Source of the DNA: Candidatus Saccharimonadota bacterium
GTDB taxonomy: Bacteria; Pseudomonadota; Gammaproteobacteria; Enterobacterales; Enterobacteriaceae
Direction of reading: 5' to 3'
Assembly (NCBI GenBank): GCA_002688505.1
Contig: CP024013.1
Span: 265,550 to 271,175, forward strand
DNA length: 5,626 nt
Shown: piece after piece, positions 1 to 5,626 of the stretch
Layout of the letters: the number at the start of each line of letters is the position of its first letter
How positions within the stretch are numbered: position 1 is the stretch's first letter
Notes under the pieces: generated by a model
The model's database searches: none
The model's input: only the letters and a program-made list of their open reading frames with translations
Told to the model about the DNA's origin: nothing
Position numbers and translations under genes: made by a program

Positions 1-77
1 AATATAAATATTTTAACACTTAAATTACTAAGTGGATCTTTTATGTATGATACAATAAATTATTTATATGAATAAAA
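1..77. repeat. Terminal direct repeat, copy 1 (circular-assembly overlap). It also holds a duplicate image of the last 25 codons of the rhamnogalacturonan lyase gene.
   Basis: Read directly: 1..77 (aatataaatattttaacacttaaattactaagtggatcttttatgtatgatacaataaattatttatatgaataaaa) is identical to 5550..5626. An exact repeat flush with both window ends marks a circular contig; 77 is a common de Bruijn k-mer size. Confidence 0.93.
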
Positions 78-1247
78 TTTTTTTTCTTTAAATAAATATA
101 TAAATATAATATTAAATATTATTGAACAAAATAAAGATAAAGATATTTTATAAATATTATTAAAATTTAAAATATATACTATTAATGAAATAATTATAAT
201 TAATATATCTTTTATGTTTATATTTTTAATTAATATATTAAAACATGATAATAATATATTTATATATATATATAAATATATTCCATATATAAAAGAAATT
301 GGTATAATATATTTTATATAAAAAATTCTGTTAATAAAAGATAGAATTATAAATAATATAGATAAAAATATTTGTGTTATTTTAATTGTTTTATTATTAT
401 ATAATATTTTATTATTAATATTATTTTCACTAAGTGTATTAGGAATTGATCCAAATAATGATGAAATAATAATTATAATGCTATTAGAAAAAAATGATTT
501 TTTTAATTGTTCAATAAATTTAATATAATTATTTTTATTTAAATTTAATATTGTTATATATGAAATATGTTCTATTAATAATATAATTATAATTGGAAAA
601 ATAAATATTATAGATTTTATATTAAAATTATACTTATATATAAAAGGTAATTTAAATATTTGTAATCTTTTATTATCAAATATATTAATTTTAAAAGATT
701 TAGATATTATATAATTTATTAAAATACTAAAAATAGTAAATATTTCTATTTTTATATTTTTAAATAAATATTTAAATATTATTAAAATTAAAGTTGTTAG
801 TATAATAATAATATTTAATAAATTATTATTATTTTTAATATTTAAAAAAAATATTTTATATAGAATTTTAAAAAATTCAAATATTATTAAAATAATATTT
901 GTAATAATAATTGATTTAGGAAAAATTAAATTAATTTTAATTAAATTTATATTATTTAAATATATACTAAATAAATAAAATGCTATACCTAAAAACATAA
1001 ATCCACTAAATATAAAATTATATTTATAATTAAAATTATATAACATTAATATTATTGGTATAAATAATATATTTTTTTCTAAATATATAGGCAATATATT
1101 ATTATTATTTAATATTAAATATATTAACATACTTATTCCATTAAATAATATTAAATTTGATATTTCTATATTTAATATAGATGATAACATAATATTATTT
1201 ATAAAATTAATAATTATTTGTTCTAATATATATAAAACTAATTTCAT
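60..1247 (-). CDS. uraA: NCS2-family nucleobase:cation symporter, uracil permease (UraA/PyrP)-like polytopic membrane protein, 395 aa
   Basis: A 395-codon open frame in DNA that is over 90% AT in sampled stretches, where TAA/TAG should occur every few codons by chance. The protein is almost entirely I/L/F/N/K/Y with many hydrophobic segments. Blocks match E. coli UraA as I recall it: ILFNGISMLIYL...ILPIYL vs LLFNGIGTLLYL...IPAYL; IFPK vs LFPP; LLIEHISY vs VIAEHVGH; KSFFSNS....SSLFGSIPNTLSENN vs RSMFANG....SGFFGSTPNTTYGENIG. The spacing between the EH and G-S-x-P-N-T blocks is the same (40 residues). An in-frame TAA lies 4 codons upstream of the ATG at 1247, so that is the first possible Met. 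Stop TAA at 60..62. No Trp codons. Confidence 0.75.
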   Translation of the reverse strand: MKLVLYILEQIIINFINNIMLSSILNIEISNLILFNGISMLIYLILNNNNILPIYLEKNILFIPIILMLYNFNYKYNFIFSGFMFLGIAFYLFSIYLNNINLIKINLIFPKSIIITNIILIIFEFFKILYKIFFLNIKNNNNLLNIIIILTTLILIIFKYLFKNIKIEIFTIFSILINYIISKSFKINIFDNKRLQIFKLPFIYKYNFNIKSIIFIFPIIIILLIEHISYITILNLNKNNYIKFIEQLKKSFFSNSIIIIISSLFGSIPNTLSENNINNKILYNNKTIKITQIFLSILFIILSFINRIFYIKYIIPISFIYGIYLYIYINILLSCFNILIKNINIKDILIIIISLIVYILNFNNIYKISLSLFCSIIFNIIFIYLFKEKKFYSYK

Positions 1248-1375: not shown

Positions 1376-2245
1376 ATGACATTAAATAAATTGAATATCA
1401 AATTTTTAAAAAAAAAAATAAATGCTAAAAAAAATATTGATTCTATGAGTGCTTTAGAAAGTAATTCTATAGGATATATTACTAGTATTTTAGCTTGCGC
1501 TTCAATACCTCATTCTAAAATAGAAAAAAGTTATTTTAAAAGAAGTAATGGAAAAACATCTTTAAAAATTATTTCAGATCCTGAATATGGTTTACCATAT
1601 GGTGTTGTGCCTAGAATATTAATGATTTGATTATGTACAGAAGTAAAGTTTAAAAAATCAAATATTATATATTTAGGAAAAAATCAAAATGAATTTATTA
1701 AAAAATTAGGAATCATACCTACAGGCGGAGTTAATGGATCTATAGCTAGAATAAAAAAACAAGTTACAAGATTATTTCATTCTACTATATCTCTTAGTGA
1801 CAATAGAAAAAATTCACATAAATTTATAAATTTAACAATAGTAGATAATGGTATTATTTGAAATAATCAAAAAAAAAGAATAGATTGAAATAATAAAATT
1901 ATTTTATCAAAAAAATTCTTTAGTAAAATTAATTCTACTTCTCTTCCTATTGATCTTAGAGTTATACGTGTACTTAGATCCCCATTGGCTATAGATATAT
2001 ATATATGATTAACTTGAAGATCAAGAATGGTTAAAAAAGGAGATAGTGTTTTAATTTCTTGAGAGAAATTAAAATTACAATTTGGTTCTAATTATTGTAA
2101 TTCTATTAAAGGTCTTCATAATTTCAAAAGAGAATTTTTGAAACAATTGAAAATTGTTTGTTTCCTTTATTCGCAAATAAATATTGAAGTACTTAATTGT
2201 GGTTTAAAAATAAATTATAGTAATTCTCATATTCCTTCATATTAA
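1376..2245 (+). CDS. repA: Plasmid replication initiator, RepA_C family (plasmid-encoded RepA), 289 aa under code 4
   Basis: The frame is continuous from ATG 1376 to TAA 2243..2245 if six in-frame TGA codons (1628, 1859, 1886, 2006, 2015, 2060) are read as Trp. No TAA/TAG occurs in frame (checked codon by codon). The translation carries the family-typical string GLPYGVVPRILMIWLCTEV..S..I.LG.NQNEFIKKLGI.PTGG.NGSI.R.K.Q..RLF...I plus LPIDLRVIRVLR-SPLAIDIYIWLTWR and ISWEKLKLQFG.NY. The recoded TGAs fall where this family has conserved Trp (IYxWLxxR). Confidence 0.9.
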
Positions 2246-2271: not shown

Positions 2272-2293
2272 ATTAGAAAAAATTTCTTTTGTT

Positions 2294-2355
2294 TTATTAT
2301 ATATATATGTTATTATATATATGTGTATTATTATATACATGTATATTATACATGT
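2294..2355 (+). repeat. Four imperfect tandem direct repeats (core TATTATATA[T/C]ATGT), iteron-like; candidate RepA-binding or origin element
   Basis: Read directly: TTATTATATATATATGT (2294..2310), TATTATATATATGT (2311..2324), TATTATATACATGT (2329..2342), TATATTATACATGT (2342..2355). Period is about 13-18 bp. It includes the 10-bp palindrome ATACATGTAT (2336..2345). It lies in the largest non-coding stretch, directly after repA. Confidence 0.45.
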
Positions 2356-2506
2356 TTAAAACAATATTTTTATTAAATATAATAAATAAATAAAAGGCTA
2401 ATATGTTAGGGAGATTGTAATTATTTATTAATTAGTCAATAGTTTATTCATTTTGATATAGTATTTATTTGTACATATCTATAATTTATTTATTATTAAA
2501 TTATTG

Positions 2507-2535
2507 AATTTAAATTAATAAATTTAATTTAAATT
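2507..2535. repeat. 12-bp perfect inverted repeat (aatttaaattaa / ttaatttaaatt) with a 5-nt spacer
   Basis: Read directly: 2507..2518 is the reverse complement of 2524..2535. It is all A/T, so its statistical weight is modest. Confidence 0.3.
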
Positions 2536-2629
2536 GTATTTAATTTTTGTATAATTTTTTTAAGATTTTAAATATATTTTTAAAATTATTTTTAATCTAA
2601 AATTTTAGTTAACATAAAAGTTAATTTAT

Positions 2630-2634
2630 AGGTG
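2630..2634 (+). promoter_or_regulatory. Shine-Dalgarno-like ribosome-binding site (AGGTG) for the polygalacturonase gene
   Basis: AGGTG lies 4 nt upstream of ATG 2639 and matches the 3' half of the canonical AAGGAGGTG. G-rich pentamers are rare in this sequence, and none of the other three genes has one. Confidence 0.6.
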
Positions 2635-2638
2635 TTTT

Positions 2639-2719
2639 ATGATAAAAAATGTTCGTTTATATATAACAAATTTATTTTGTATATTAAGTTTAGTTTTAGG
2701 TTTAAATACATCTTTTGCT
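2639..2719 (+). other. Sec-type signal peptide of the polygalacturonase (predicted cleavage after SFA, before SGDT)
   Basis: MIKNVRLYITNLFCILSLVLGLNTSFA|SG has a basic n-region (K3, R6), a hydrophobic core, and a small-x-small (S-F-A) cleavage motif. It aligns with the PehA signal peptide end (SAWA|SDS) from memory. The four Cys positions corresponding to the two PehA disulfides are retained (ESC...DYC, KKC...NGC). Confidence 0.75.
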
Positions 2720-3904
2720 TCAGGAGATACAAGAAATGTAAAAGAACCTTCTATACCTGAAAGTTGTGTAACTTTAAAAGCTAATAATAAGAATTTGACT
2801 ACAACTATACAAAATCAATTAGATTATTGTGCATCTTTTAAAAAAGTTGTAAAATTAGATTTATCTAATAATAAAAATTTTCATTTTTATTCAGGGCCAT
2901 TAAATATTCCATCACACGGTGGATTATTAATTAGTAAAGGTGTTGTTTTATCAGCTATACCTGATCCTTTATTGTATGATACAGGTAATAAAAAATGTGG
3001 TACTATAGATAATAATGGAAATGGATGTAAACCTTTTATAAATGTTAAAAATACTGAAAATAGTGGTATATATGGTGAAGGTACTATAGATGGACAAGGT
3101 AATTCTATTATAAAAGGAACTAAAAAAACTTGGTGAAATTTATCTAGTGAAGCTCAAAAATTAAATAAATCACAAAATGTACCTAGATTAATAGAAATTA
3201 GAAATTCAAAGAATTTTACTATTTATAAAATTTCTTTAAAAAATTCACCTAATTTTCATGTAGCTATGGGTAATGTTAATGGTTTTACTGCATGAAATGT
3301 AAAAATTAATACTCCTGCTGATGCTCGTAATACTGATGGAATAGATCCTGGATCTTCAACTAATATTACTATAGCTCATTCATATATAAGTACTGGAGAT
3401 GATAATATAGCTATTAAAGCTGGTAATGGTCCTACATCTCATGTATCTATATTAAATAACTTTTTTGGTAAAGGTCATGGAATGTCTATAGGTAGTGAAA
3501 CTTCAGGATCAGTAACAGATGTAATTGTAGATAATTTAACAATGGATGGTACTACTAATGGATTACATATAAAAAGTAGTAAAGCAAATGGTGGTTTAGT
3601 TAGTAATATTACATATAAAAATGTTTGTATAAAAAATGTACAATACCCAATTTTATTGGATATGTTCTATCAAAAAATTAATAAAGGAAATAAAATTCCT
3701 CAATTTAAAAATATACATTTTGATAATGTAAAAATATTAACTCCTGGTAAATTTATTTTTAAAGGTCTTAAAGATAATAATATACAAGTTACATTTAATA
3801 ATGTAAGTATTAAGAAAGGATCTGTAATAGAAGAAGAATATTTAACTAAGACAGGTTCAATGAATGAAAATTCTACAGGTAATATTTGTCCTAATTATCA
3901 ATAG
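2639..3904 (+). CDS. pehA: GH28 endo-polygalacturonase (pectinase), PehA-like, 421 aa under code 4
   Basis: The ORF-track fragments 2639..3136 and 3482..3904 share one frame. They join into a continuous frame when TGA 3134 and TGA 3293 are read as Trp, with no in-frame TAA/TAG until TAG 3902..3904. All four GH28 signature motifs are present in order: ARNTDGIDPG, STGDDNIAIK, GKGHGMSIGSE, and NGLHIKS (RIK motif with R>H). The sequence is collinear with Pectobacterium PehA as I recall it: SGDTRNVKEPSIPESCVTLKA vs SDSRTVSEPKTPSSCTTLKA; TWWNL vs SWWEL; NVPRLIEIRNSKNFTIYKISLKNSPNFHV vs NTPRLIQINKSKNFTLYNVSLINSPNFHV; GFTAWN vs GFTAWK. Both recoded TGAs align to PehA Trp residues. Confidence 0.95.
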
Positions 3905-3910
3905 TTTTTT

Positions 3911-3950
3911 AATTATAATTTAACCTATATATATAGGTTAAATTATAATT
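3911..3950. terminator. Perfect 40-bp palindrome (20+20) between the two pectinase genes; hairpin that is a candidate intrinsic terminator, attenuator or RNA-processing site
   Basis: Read directly: aattataatttaacctatat (3911..3930) is the exact reverse complement of atataggttaaattataatt (3931..3950). It begins 7 nt after the polygalacturonase stop and is followed by ttatatattt. It ends 21 nt before the lyase ATG. Confidence 0.55.
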
Positions 3951-3971
3951 TTATATATTTATGTTATTATT

Positions 3972-5624
3972 ATGAATAAACAAGATATTAAATTAGAAAT
4001 TAATGGTTTAAATTTAATTATTAAAAATAAATTTTTTAAAGTTTATATATATAATTCATATGTTATTAAAATTTTAGTAGATAATGTAAACTTAATAAAT
4101 AATTTAAATGGTAAAAAAACATTTTATTTAGATTGAAATGGCGGTAAATTTATATTTAAACCTAAAAATTTATTTGTATTAAAATATTCAAATAATATTA
4201 TACATGTAATGTATAATATGTTTTTATATGATAAATGTGAGATACAATATCACTATATTTTTAAAAATAATTTATTTGGAATATATAATTATGTAGTTAT
4301 TAATAATTTAAATATAAATATTTCATATAAATTTAGTGAAATAAGAACTGTATATCGCTTTGATTATGAAATAATGAATATGTTATATAATGGTTTATTA
4401 ATACATAAATCATATCTTTATAATTTTTTAAATAAACAAATATTAGTTCAAGATGAAACATGACAATTAAAAGATGGAACTTATTATTCTAAATATGACT
4501 TAGCTGGTTATATAAGAGATACTAATTTTTATGGTATTTATGGTAATAAATATGGTGCTTGAATTATGAATTTTAGTAATGAATATTTTTCAGGAGGTCC
4601 TTTAAAACAAGATTTATTAGTACATCAAGATTCTTTAATTTTAAATTACTTAAATAGTACTCATTTTGGTACTAAAGAATTAATTATACCTAAATATAAA
4701 TGATCTAAAATGTACGGTCCTTGATTAATTTATTTTAATAAAGGTAAAGATATTAATTTAATTTCAGATGCAAATATGTTTTTTAATATCGAAAAAAATA
4801 ATTGACCTTTTAATTGAATAAATGATAAAAATTATCCAATTATAAGATCTACATTAAAAGGTAAATTAAAAAATGTAAAAAATTTATATAAAATTGTTTT
4901 ATGTTCTTCTATTAATGAAGAATTCGATTTTCAAACTTTAGGTTATTTATACAATACAAATTCATTAAATGATGGAACTTTTATAATAAAAAATATTAGA
5001 CCTAATATTTATAATTTATATATATATCCTATAAATGGATATGACTGTAATTTTTTATTTAAAAAAAAAATAAATATTAAATATAATTTGAATTTAGGAA
5101 TATTAGATATAAATGAAAATTTACTAAATAAAAAATTAATTTGAAATATTGGAGAAACAAATCGTAAATCAGATAAATTTAAATATAGTAGTAAAAATAG
5201 AAATTATATTTGACATACATTAGTACCTTCAAATATAAATTTTTATATTTATAAAAAAAATAATATTAAAAAAAATTGATATTATGCTCAAACTAAAAGA
5301 GGTAAATGAAATATATATTTTTACGATAAAATAGATAATAAAAATAGAATACTAAATATAGGTATATCAGGAGTTAGTTCTAATATTTTAGAAAAAAATA
5401 TTAATAAACCTAAATTAGAAATATATTTAAATAATATTTTATTAAATGTACTTTCATATGAAAATGATAAATCAATATATAGAGGTGCTTTAAATAGTGG
5501 TAATTTTTATAGTAAAAAAATATTTATATCAAAAAAATTAATAATAAATAATATAAATATTTTAACACTTAAATTACTAAGTGGATCTTTTATGTATGAT
5601 ACAATAAATTATTTATATGAATAA
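3972..5624 (+). CDS. PL4-family rhamnogalacturonan lyase (RG-I endolyase, RhiE-like), 550 aa under code 4, no signal peptide
   Basis: I checked all 551 codons from ATG 3972 to TAA 5622..5624. There are 11 in-frame TGA codons (4134, 4461, 4560, 4701, 4722, 4803, 4815, 5142, 5211, 5277, 5307) and no TAA/TAG. The ORF-track fragment 4209..4463 is an internal piece. The translation shows PL4-like blocks: YFSGGPLKQDL (cf. SSGGPFHRDI in Aspergillus RGL4), LNYLNSTHFGT, WSKMYGPWLIYFNKG, a mid-domain FIIKNIRPNIYNLYIY (fn3-like), and WNIGETNRKSDKF (cf. IGEWDG). The C-terminal jelly-roll ends SIYRGALNSG...LLSGSFMYDTINYLYE (cf. ...MYDY.RLE). Confidence 0.88.
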
Positions 5625-5626
5625 AA
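5550..5626. repeat. Terminal direct repeat, copy 2 (circular-assembly overlap)
   Basis: Identical to 1..77. Removing one copy gives a 5549-bp circle. Confidence 0.93.

Follow-up and report, generated by a model that had tools for sequence, protein, structure and literature searches.

A 5.5-kb plasmid assigned to Candidatus Stammera capleta, encoding a polygalacturonase and a rhamnogalacturonan lyase with conserved catalytic residues under genetic code 4

Gene content and circularity

The 5,626-nt stretch of DNA analysed here (hereafter the window, to which all coordinates refer) carries four long open reading frames (ORFs) when read with genetic code 4: those of a family GH28 polygalacturonase and a family PL4 rhamnogalacturonan lyase, which together form a pectin-degrading pair, and those of a plasmid replication initiator and a permease. 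The annotated features are the following:

2639..3904, plus strand: predicted GH28 endo-polygalacturonase, PehA-like, 421 aa (Pfam PF00295, 5.1e-65; PDB 1BHE, E=5e-104)
3972..5624, plus strand: PL4 rhamnogalacturonan endolyase, 550 aa, no signal peptide (PF14683, 1.9e-14; fold match to RGL4)
3911..3950, plus strand: hairpin in the spacer between the GH28 and PL4 genes, with a perfect 18-bp stem, a 4-nt loop and a T-rich tail (minimum free energy -17.3 kcal/mol)
2528..2555, plus strand: promoter-like site TTTAAA-16-TATAAT upstream of the GH28 gene (10/12 in a consensus scan)
1376..2245, plus strand: repA, plasmid replication initiator, 289 aa (Pfam RepA_C, 3.4e-24)
2418..2495, plus strand: iteron-like direct repeats downstream of repA, consensus approximately TAGTATTTATTYRT, with TTTATT cores at 2423, 2443, 2464 and 2485, spaced 20-21 bp
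60..1247, minus strand: predicted NCS2-family nucleobase (uracil-type) permease, 395 aa, 8.2% GC (Pfam Xan_ur_permease, 3.9e-14)
1..77, no strand: terminal overlap, identical to 5550..5626, marking closure of a 5,549-bp circle

Because the 77-nt overlap between the two ends is exact, the window represents a circle of 5,549 bp followed by a second copy of its first 77 nt. The four ORFs occupy 90% of this circle, and the two pectinase genes alone account for 52.6%, which agrees with the first-pass annotation of this DNA, where the pair had been described as filling more than half of a minimal 5.5-kb plasmid. One contig from the Logan assemblies (L004) is identical to positions 3921..5549 joined to 1..257 (100% identity) and crosses the junction, so that assembled reads span each join between neighbouring parts of the circle. 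From run SRR6147586, two Logan contigs match the window at 100% identity; the contigs recovered for the PL4 and GH28 genes were all short, and none encoding the permease was returned in the contig search. The GC content varies between 7 and 29% in 400-nt windows along the sequence and between 8 and 25% per gene. Searching the window for Rfam families (E<=1) and for tRNA genes gave no match, and a generic repeat search matched mostly low-complexity AT tracts.

Assignment to Candidatus Stammera capleta

A megablast search of the circle against 72,556 plasmid records yielded 33 matches, every one of them (33/33) from Candidatus Stammera capleta. Three are full-length plasmid matches, with identities of 85.3% (symbiont of Cassida vibex), 84.5% and 83.5% (symbiont of Cassida viridis). 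The Stammera plasmids used for comparison are referred to below as L001-L003 and L006-L013, L003 being CP043974.1; the gene order permease-repA-GH28-PL4 is common to the window, L001-L003 and L006-L009. The circular order, including a convergent overlap between the 3' ends of the PL4 and permease genes, also matches that of complete circular Stammera plasmid records. In addition, all four plasmid proteins have exact, full-length matches among NCBI entries, residue for residue. The source assembly is absent from the GTDB species-representative genomes, in which an exact 53-mer search gave no match. A likeness to Stammera had been proposed in the first-pass annotation, and the exclusively Stammera matches of the circle, together with the exact copies of its four proteins, bear this proposal out. 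The PehA-like sequence and the RepA_C initiator, read at the same time as pointing to a gammaproteobacterial (Enterobacterales-type) lineage, are both present.

We conclude, with a probability of about 0.93, that the window holds in full the 5.5-kb pectinase plasmid of Candidatus Stammera capleta, an extracellular, genome-reduced gut symbiont of cassidine (tortoise) leaf beetles, and that the pectinases it encodes serve the beetle. Most probably the strain comes from a beetle of the genus Cassida; the exact matches of its proteins suggest that it is the one whose genome, of C. rubiginosa type, has already been deposited.

Genetic code

Translation with table 4 gives uninterrupted proteins of 421 aa from 2639..3904 and 550 aa from 3972..5624, both on the plus strand, whereas with table 11 the long frames are broken only at TGA and both enzyme ORFs are fragmented. 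In-frame TGA outnumbers TGG by 19 to 1 across the three genes that contain Trp codons, and all 11 Trp residues of the lyase are encoded by TGA. The TGA codons of lyase residues W164, W251, W436 and W446 correspond to columns that are invariantly Trp in 26 bacterial, insect and fungal PL4 proteins, and the codon pair TGG-TGA in the GH28 gene aligns with the 'WW' of Pectobacterium PehA. The decoding of UGA as Trp is thus demonstrated directly, since TGA falls on conserved Trp positions; the earlier call of code 4 in DNA of extreme AT bias was accurate.

The two pectinases

The polygalacturonase matches Glyco_hydro_28 (PF00295) with 220.1 bits against a cut-off of 22.9, and its best solved homologue is Pectobacterium PehA (1BHE; 51% identity), the next structure scoring only 6e-29. 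The two proteins are collinear from residue 2 to residue 365 of mature PehA. From this full-length collinearity with an endo-polygalacturonase, and from the far lower scores of exo-enzymes, we infer that the plasmid enzyme is endo-acting on polygalacturonate. The catalytic residues Asp233 (3335..3337, in the motif NTD), Asp254 and Asp255 (3398..3403, DD) and His280 (3476..3478, GHG) are intact, align to D202, D223, D224 and H251 of PehA, and are invariant in 11 Stammera orthologues. Residues 1-27 (2639..2719) form a typical Sec signal peptide with a basic n-region, a hydrophobic core and a cleavage site between SFA and S; this signal peptide is kept in every Stammera orthologue and ends where mature PehA starts. 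The ratio of nonsynonymous to synonymous substitution rates (dN/dS) of the gene, calculated against five relatives, is 0.14-0.24.

Upstream of the GH28 gene, both the -10 block and an AGGT block are conserved in a spacer alignment of 7 plasmids, and a conserved Shine-Dalgarno-like AGGTG lies at 2630..2634, 4 nt 5' of the ATG; the lyase gene has no such sequence (3955..3971). The promoter-like site itself is weak evidence, because sigma-70 sites are not enriched in the scan (74 sites versus 85.8 expected). A terminator called by the scanner at 2908..2923 lies inside the GH28 gene and was disregarded. As a separate observation, the GH28 frame of the Cassida viridis symbiont plasmid (L003) is split into ORFs of 156 aa and 212 aa (5155..5625 and 231..869), which could reflect a frameshift, a pseudogene or an assembly error.

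The catalytic domain of the lyase was recognized through hhalign, MAFFT and a structure model. Domain III of the protein matches PF14683 with 54.3 bits against a cut-off of 27, and domain II (fn3_3, PF14686) reaches 20.8 bits, just below the cut-off of 24.4. The Pfam scan gave no match for the N-terminal catalytic domain, and a phmmer search of the protein against PDB sequences gave no match either; a PL4 family profile reached the structure of A. aculeatus RGL4 (1NKG) through domains II and III only. The Pfam domains anticipated in the first-pass annotation were therefore recovered in part: PF14683 is present, the N-terminal Rhamnogal_lyase match is absent and fn3_3 stays sub-threshold. A search of 5.8 billion proteins supplied 95 homologues, from which a 26-sequence alignment was built; hhalign aligned it to 1NKG with 97% probability over residues 120-539. 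An AlphaFold2 model of the lyase (predicted local distance difference test score, pLDDT, 89; predicted template modelling score, pTM, 0.87) retrieved 3NJX, 1NKG and 2XHN as its top three PDB entries in Foldseek, with E=2e-29 and template modelling (TM) scores of 0.69 for the query (TMq) and 0.74 for the target (TMt), the next match having a TM score of 0.32 and all others 0.33 or less. The hhalign alignment to 1NKG and the model thus make good the missing Pfam match to the catalytic domain.

The residues of 1NKG were recovered by a sequence query of the PDB, which matched at 309/309 positions. MAFFT, run in three modes, places Lys174 of the lyase (4491..4493) on Lys150 of RGL4 and His231 (4662..4664) on His210; hhalign and MAFFT agree on the histidine. 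Both residues are invariant in all 26 PL4 sequences, and the RGL4 entries matched include some titled 'K150A active site mutant' and 'mutant H210A'. As regards the two enzymes, the gene coordinates of the first-pass annotation are exact and its identification of a PehA-like GH28 protein and a PL4 lyase holds; the Asp triad and His of the former and the Lys/His pair of the latter, whose loss it had named as grounds for refutation, are intact.

Alternative interpretations

Several observations weigh against the reading of the window as a free plasmid with two working pectinases. In NCBI, the exact copies of the four proteins belong to a contig of 271,175 bp and not to a 5.5-kb record. The pairing of Lys174 with Lys150 comes from MAFFT only, hhalign setting Lys150 three residues off, next to a gap. 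The substrate-binding RIK motif of the polygalacturonase reads His310-Ile-Lys312 (3566..3574), that is, HIK. Finally, the export routes, the functions of the hairpin and of the iteron-like repeats, and the permease substrate are all inferred. As for the HIK motif, the change from Arg to His is fixed in 9 of the 11 Stammera orthologues, the Lys is conserved, and the Arg is retained in PehA and in the deeper-branching plasmids L012 (from the symbiont of Chelymorpha alternans) and L013; this distribution indicates a derived state maintained under selection rather than damage.

The 271,175-bp contig raises the possibility that the unit is integrated in the Stammera chromosome and that a repeat or tandem copy makes it look circular through an error of assembly. 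Some Stammera strains have indeed been described as having lost a plasmid, with subsequent chromosomal integration (10.1101/2023.12.12.571295), and the deposited assembly may show the plasmid unit joined into a chromosome-sized sequence. Against this stand the exact terminal overlap, the independent Logan contig that reads through the junction, and the nearest relatives, whose database records are complete circular plasmids (5,564-5,612 bp) that share both the gene order and the convergent PL4/permease overlap. An intact repA under purifying selection, accompanied by an iteron-like array, is also at odds with integration. We therefore consider it unlikely that the unit exists only in an integrated form.

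A second alternative accepts the plasmid and holds that the lyase is a decaying, non-functional remnant, only the polygalacturonase being of consequence to the host. The lyase gene lacks a signal peptide and a Shine-Dalgarno sequence and is very low in GC, its catalytic domain is missed by Pfam, its dN/dS (0.25-0.39) exceeds that of the GH28 gene, and other Stammera lineages have GH67 in place of PL4. Yet its ORF has remained intact over 550 codons in DNA of 15.5% GC, dN/dS is well below 1 in all five comparisons, the catalytic Lys and His are invariant together with many other columns, and the three-domain fold is confidently predicted. The loss of the signal peptide is common to all Stammera orthologues, at 56-82% identity, and must therefore be old and tolerated under continued selection. 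Moreover, the literature counts the lyase of the C. rubiginosa symbiont among the functional factors that benefit the host (PMC12905250). Decay of the lyase is accordingly very improbable, and we regard the enzyme as a bona fide, constrained PL4 lyase.

The last alternative, a plasmid of some other organism using code 4 (a member of the Mollicutes, a Hodgkinia- or Zinderia-type symbiont or an organelle) with independently acquired pectinases, can draw on the code and extreme AT content common to those groups and is refuted by the nucleotide matches along the whole circle, at 83-85% identity and exclusively to Stammera plasmids, as well as being contradicted by the proteobacterial affinities of RepA and the GH28 protein.

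Export of the enzymes and the intergenic hairpin

The two pectinases differ in their export signals. In contrast to the polygalacturonase, the lyase lacks a signal peptide in all ten Stammera lyases compared (10/10), each of which begins directly at the mature domain, whereas the PL4 homologues of Dickeya zeae (P0045) and of a bark beetle (P0039) possess an obvious one. In the plasmid lyase, residue 5 falls on residue 1 of mature RGL4 in a global hhalign alignment, and a hidden leader can be discounted because an in-frame stop lies only 10 codons upstream of the ATG.

Apart from Sec, most of the secretion machinery is missing from Stammera, and it has been proposed that the enzymes leak from degenerating symbiont cells and are then squeezed into the gut (PMC11059521). 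A Sec-targeted polygalacturonase beside a leaderless lyase fits this published picture and makes it testable. The polygalacturonase would cross the inner membrane through Sec by means of its signal peptide, and the lyase, having no signal peptide in any Stammera orthologue, probably reaches the gut as symbiont cells leak or lyse when the symbiotic organ is squeezed.

The spacer between the two genes holds the 18-bp hairpin, whose folding energy departs from that of dinucleotide shuffles by z=-3.5 and from that of mononucleotide shuffles of the spacer by z=-6.3. A hairpin occupies this spacer in each of the 10 plasmids compared (z from -3.2 to -6.6); its core AACCTATA...TATAGGTT is common to 7 of the 10, and the stems of L008, L009 and L013 differ in sequence yet still pair, a pattern of covariation. 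Both Logan contigs from SRR6147586 break inside this element. The hairpin is probably an intrinsic terminator or attenuator, or a stem that stabilises mRNA; as a terminator or attenuator, or by stabilising the GH28 message, it would set the ratio of polygalacturonase to lyase.

Taken together, these features suggest a tentative scheme, which we hold to be rather less than an even chance, in which the pectinases leave the cell by two routes built into the plasmid: Sec for the polygalacturonase, and lysis or leakage for the lyase, whose signal peptide would have been lost before the radiation of these symbionts (the loss being shared with three AT-rich sister sequences), with the hairpin setting the ratio of the two. 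If this scheme were true, digestion of rhamnogalacturonan I (RG-I) would depend on a sacrificial turnover of symbiont cells, and the 'leak and squeeze' proposal would gain support at the sequence level.

Origin of the lyase

In a distance-based neighbour-joining tree of 45 PL4 sequences, the Stammera lyases and three proteins from Logan contigs form a clade with 100% bootstrap support. This clade is nested in another 100% clade together with insect-encoded PL4 proteins from the gall wasp Belonocnema and from weevils and bark beetles (Hypothenemus, Dendroctonus, Anthonomus and Ceutorhynchus), whereas the PL4 lyases of Dickeya, Pectobacterium, Brenneria and Vibrio fall outside it. The Stammera enzyme thus sides with insect-encoded lyases and not with those of soft-rot Enterobacterales. 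We treat this insect affinity as a lead only, because the tree is distance-based and composition bias lies outside its model.

The nearest PL4 proteins from outside Stammera are encoded on the Logan contigs L014 (228..1850), L015 (237..1910) and L016 (148..1824), from runs SRR27871536, SRR20326211 and SRR33329850, respectively. These contigs have 16-26% GC and their lyases are leaderless, with Trp encoded by TGG and not by TGA. Given the low GC content and the lack of signal peptides, they may derive from other genome-reduced pectinolytic symbionts. Separately, six PL4 paralogues (P0018, P0019, P0020, P0022, P0028 and P0032) were encountered on one ENA contig of 58,851 bp; P0018 and P0019, both of which are in the tree, group with the gall-wasp genes, and the contig apparently represents a tandem array in an insect genome.

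Replication module and permease

The initiator gene encodes a RepA_C protein, as had been annotated at first, with a score of 86.5 bits against a cut-off of 26. Among the matches listed, its identity to the RepA proteins of 42 Stammera plasmids is 52-81%, and the nearest non-Stammera proteins are RepA proteins of Xanthomonas plasmids (43%). The dN/dS of repA is 0.18-0.29. Downstream of the gene, an AT/TATATACATG-rich stretch at about 2290..2350 precedes the iteron-like array. A chain of 3 strict same-strand repeat matches at 21-bp spacing, as found here, arose in 0 of 2,000 dinucleotide shuffles, and L002 and L003 have chains of four copies at the corresponding position, with looser clusters in L001, L006, L007, L010 and L013. 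The array at 2418..2495 therefore has the layout expected of iterons and is a putative origin of replication to which RepA would bind; RepA and the repeats would together maintain the circle as a separate replicon.

The permease ORF is so poor in GC that its coding status deserves comment. It contains no Trp codon, and 28% of its residues are Ile. It runs for 395 codons without a stop, against 54 on average and at most 122 in shuffled sequences, and the other two frames of the same strand hold 56 and 58 stops, which identifies it as a real gene. The product scores 52.6 bits against Xan_ur_permease (cut-off 27) and aligns to UraA (3QE7) with E=1.3e-25 over UraA residues 22-376; the NCBIfam uracil permease equivalog is matched at 2e-25 with 89 bits, far under its cut-off of 477. 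Glu241 of UraA is kept, His245 is replaced by Tyr, and the 'GEN' motif reads 'SEN'. A tblastn search of the permease against PLSDB gave no match and unfiltered BLASTP against translated plasmid ORFs found its homologues, the tblastn failure being attributed to the low-complexity filter of BLAST. The convergent overlap of its 3' end with that of the lyase gene spans 16 nt (60..75), compared with 8 nt in L001.

With dN/dS values of 0.46-0.82 the permease is under relaxed constraint; L010 has a truncated copy of the gene, and L011 and L013 have none. To judge from its homology, the protein is a nucleobase-type carrier and not an importer of pectin products (oligogalacturonides or uronates); the symbiont probably uses it to take up a nucleobase for its own needs, and decay of the gene is probably under way in some lineages. 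An earlier remark that the circle has no genes for the uptake or catabolism of pectin products consequently stands: none was found in profile scans, and the sole transporter is of the NCS2 type.

Biological role

The polygalacturonase would hydrolyse homogalacturonan and the lyase would cleave the RG-I backbone by beta-elimination. Because the plasmid carries no means of using the products, the enzymes are taken to serve the digestion of the beetle. The gene identities, the intact active sites, the use of code 4, the circularity, the membership in Stammera and the purifying selection on the GH28, PL4 and repA genes (dN/dS 0.14-0.39) are direct observations; the role in host service goes beyond what the window alone can show and matches published biology. 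Stammera strains carry one or two plasmids of 2.5-9 kb that encode mainly host-beneficial enzymes; their genes were called with code 4, and GH28, PL4 and GH67 constitute the ancestral enzyme set (10.1101/2023.12.12.571295). Plasmid copy number rises after larval eclosion (10.1101/2023.12.12.571295), and published work also reports its rise during host feeding. Cassida rubiginosa and Aspidimorpha quinquefasciata receive polygalacturonase and rhamnogalacturonan lyase from their symbionts, and other hosts receive polygalacturonase and alpha-glucuronidase (PMC12905250).

The system is thus already known, the polygalacturonase and lyase cargo of Stammera plasmids, their genetic code and their host-service role having all been published, and as a discovery the present analysis carries little weight. 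Its value as a check lies in showing that the first-pass identification was right and that neither enzyme has lost its catalytic residues. In the literature searched on Stammera, we found no mention of the signal-peptide asymmetry between the two pectinases or of the HIK subclade, of the conserved hairpin between their genes or the 21-bp iteron-like repeats, or of the relaxed permease of 8% GC or the grouping of the lyase with insect proteins. These secondary details, which may be useful to specialists, bear on how enzymes are delivered by a bacterium with almost no secretion machinery and on how a replicon of 5.5 kb is kept up.

Comparison with known systems

The closest known counterparts of the window are the Stammera plasmids p1 / pSt..1, namely CP043979.1 (host Cassida vibex), CP144844.1 and CP043974.1 (host Cassida viridis). 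All are 5.56-5.61 kb long, agree with the window in their four genes and in the arrangement and orientation of these, use code 4, are 83-85% identical in nucleotide sequence over their full length, and share the hairpin core and an iteron-like array. Their proteins are 91% (GH28), 80-82% (PL4), 81-84% (RepA) and 61-63% (permease) identical to those of the window, so that the window corresponds to no PLSDB record and represents a separate, host-specific strain.

Mature PehA of Pectobacterium resembles the plasmid polygalacturonase along its entire length: large insertions are absent and the NTD, DD and GHG motifs are identical. A Sec signal peptide is a further common feature. The plasmid enzyme differs in having His in place of the RIK Arg, as in the rest of this Stammera subclade, and in a C-terminal extension of about 27 residues past the aligned part of 1BHE; its context is also different, the symbiont plasmid carrying no type II secretion genes. 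The lyase shares with RGL4 (1NKG; K150A mutant 2XHN, H210A mutant 3NJX) the three-domain fold and the catalytic Lys and His despite a sequence identity of merely 13%, and it is 37% identical to the PL4 lyases of Dickeya and Pectobacterium.

At the level of the replicon, the nearest parallel is offered by the pLeu- and pTrp-type plasmids of Buchnera, an analogy drawn by the authors of the Stammera work themselves (10.1101/2023.12.12.571295). In both cases the genes amplified on the small Rep-dependent plasmid of a tiny symbiont are ones that benefit the host. The cargo of the Buchnera plasmids is amino-acid biosynthesis, whereas the plasmid described here provides secreted digestive enzymes, in an extracellular symbiont that uses code 4.

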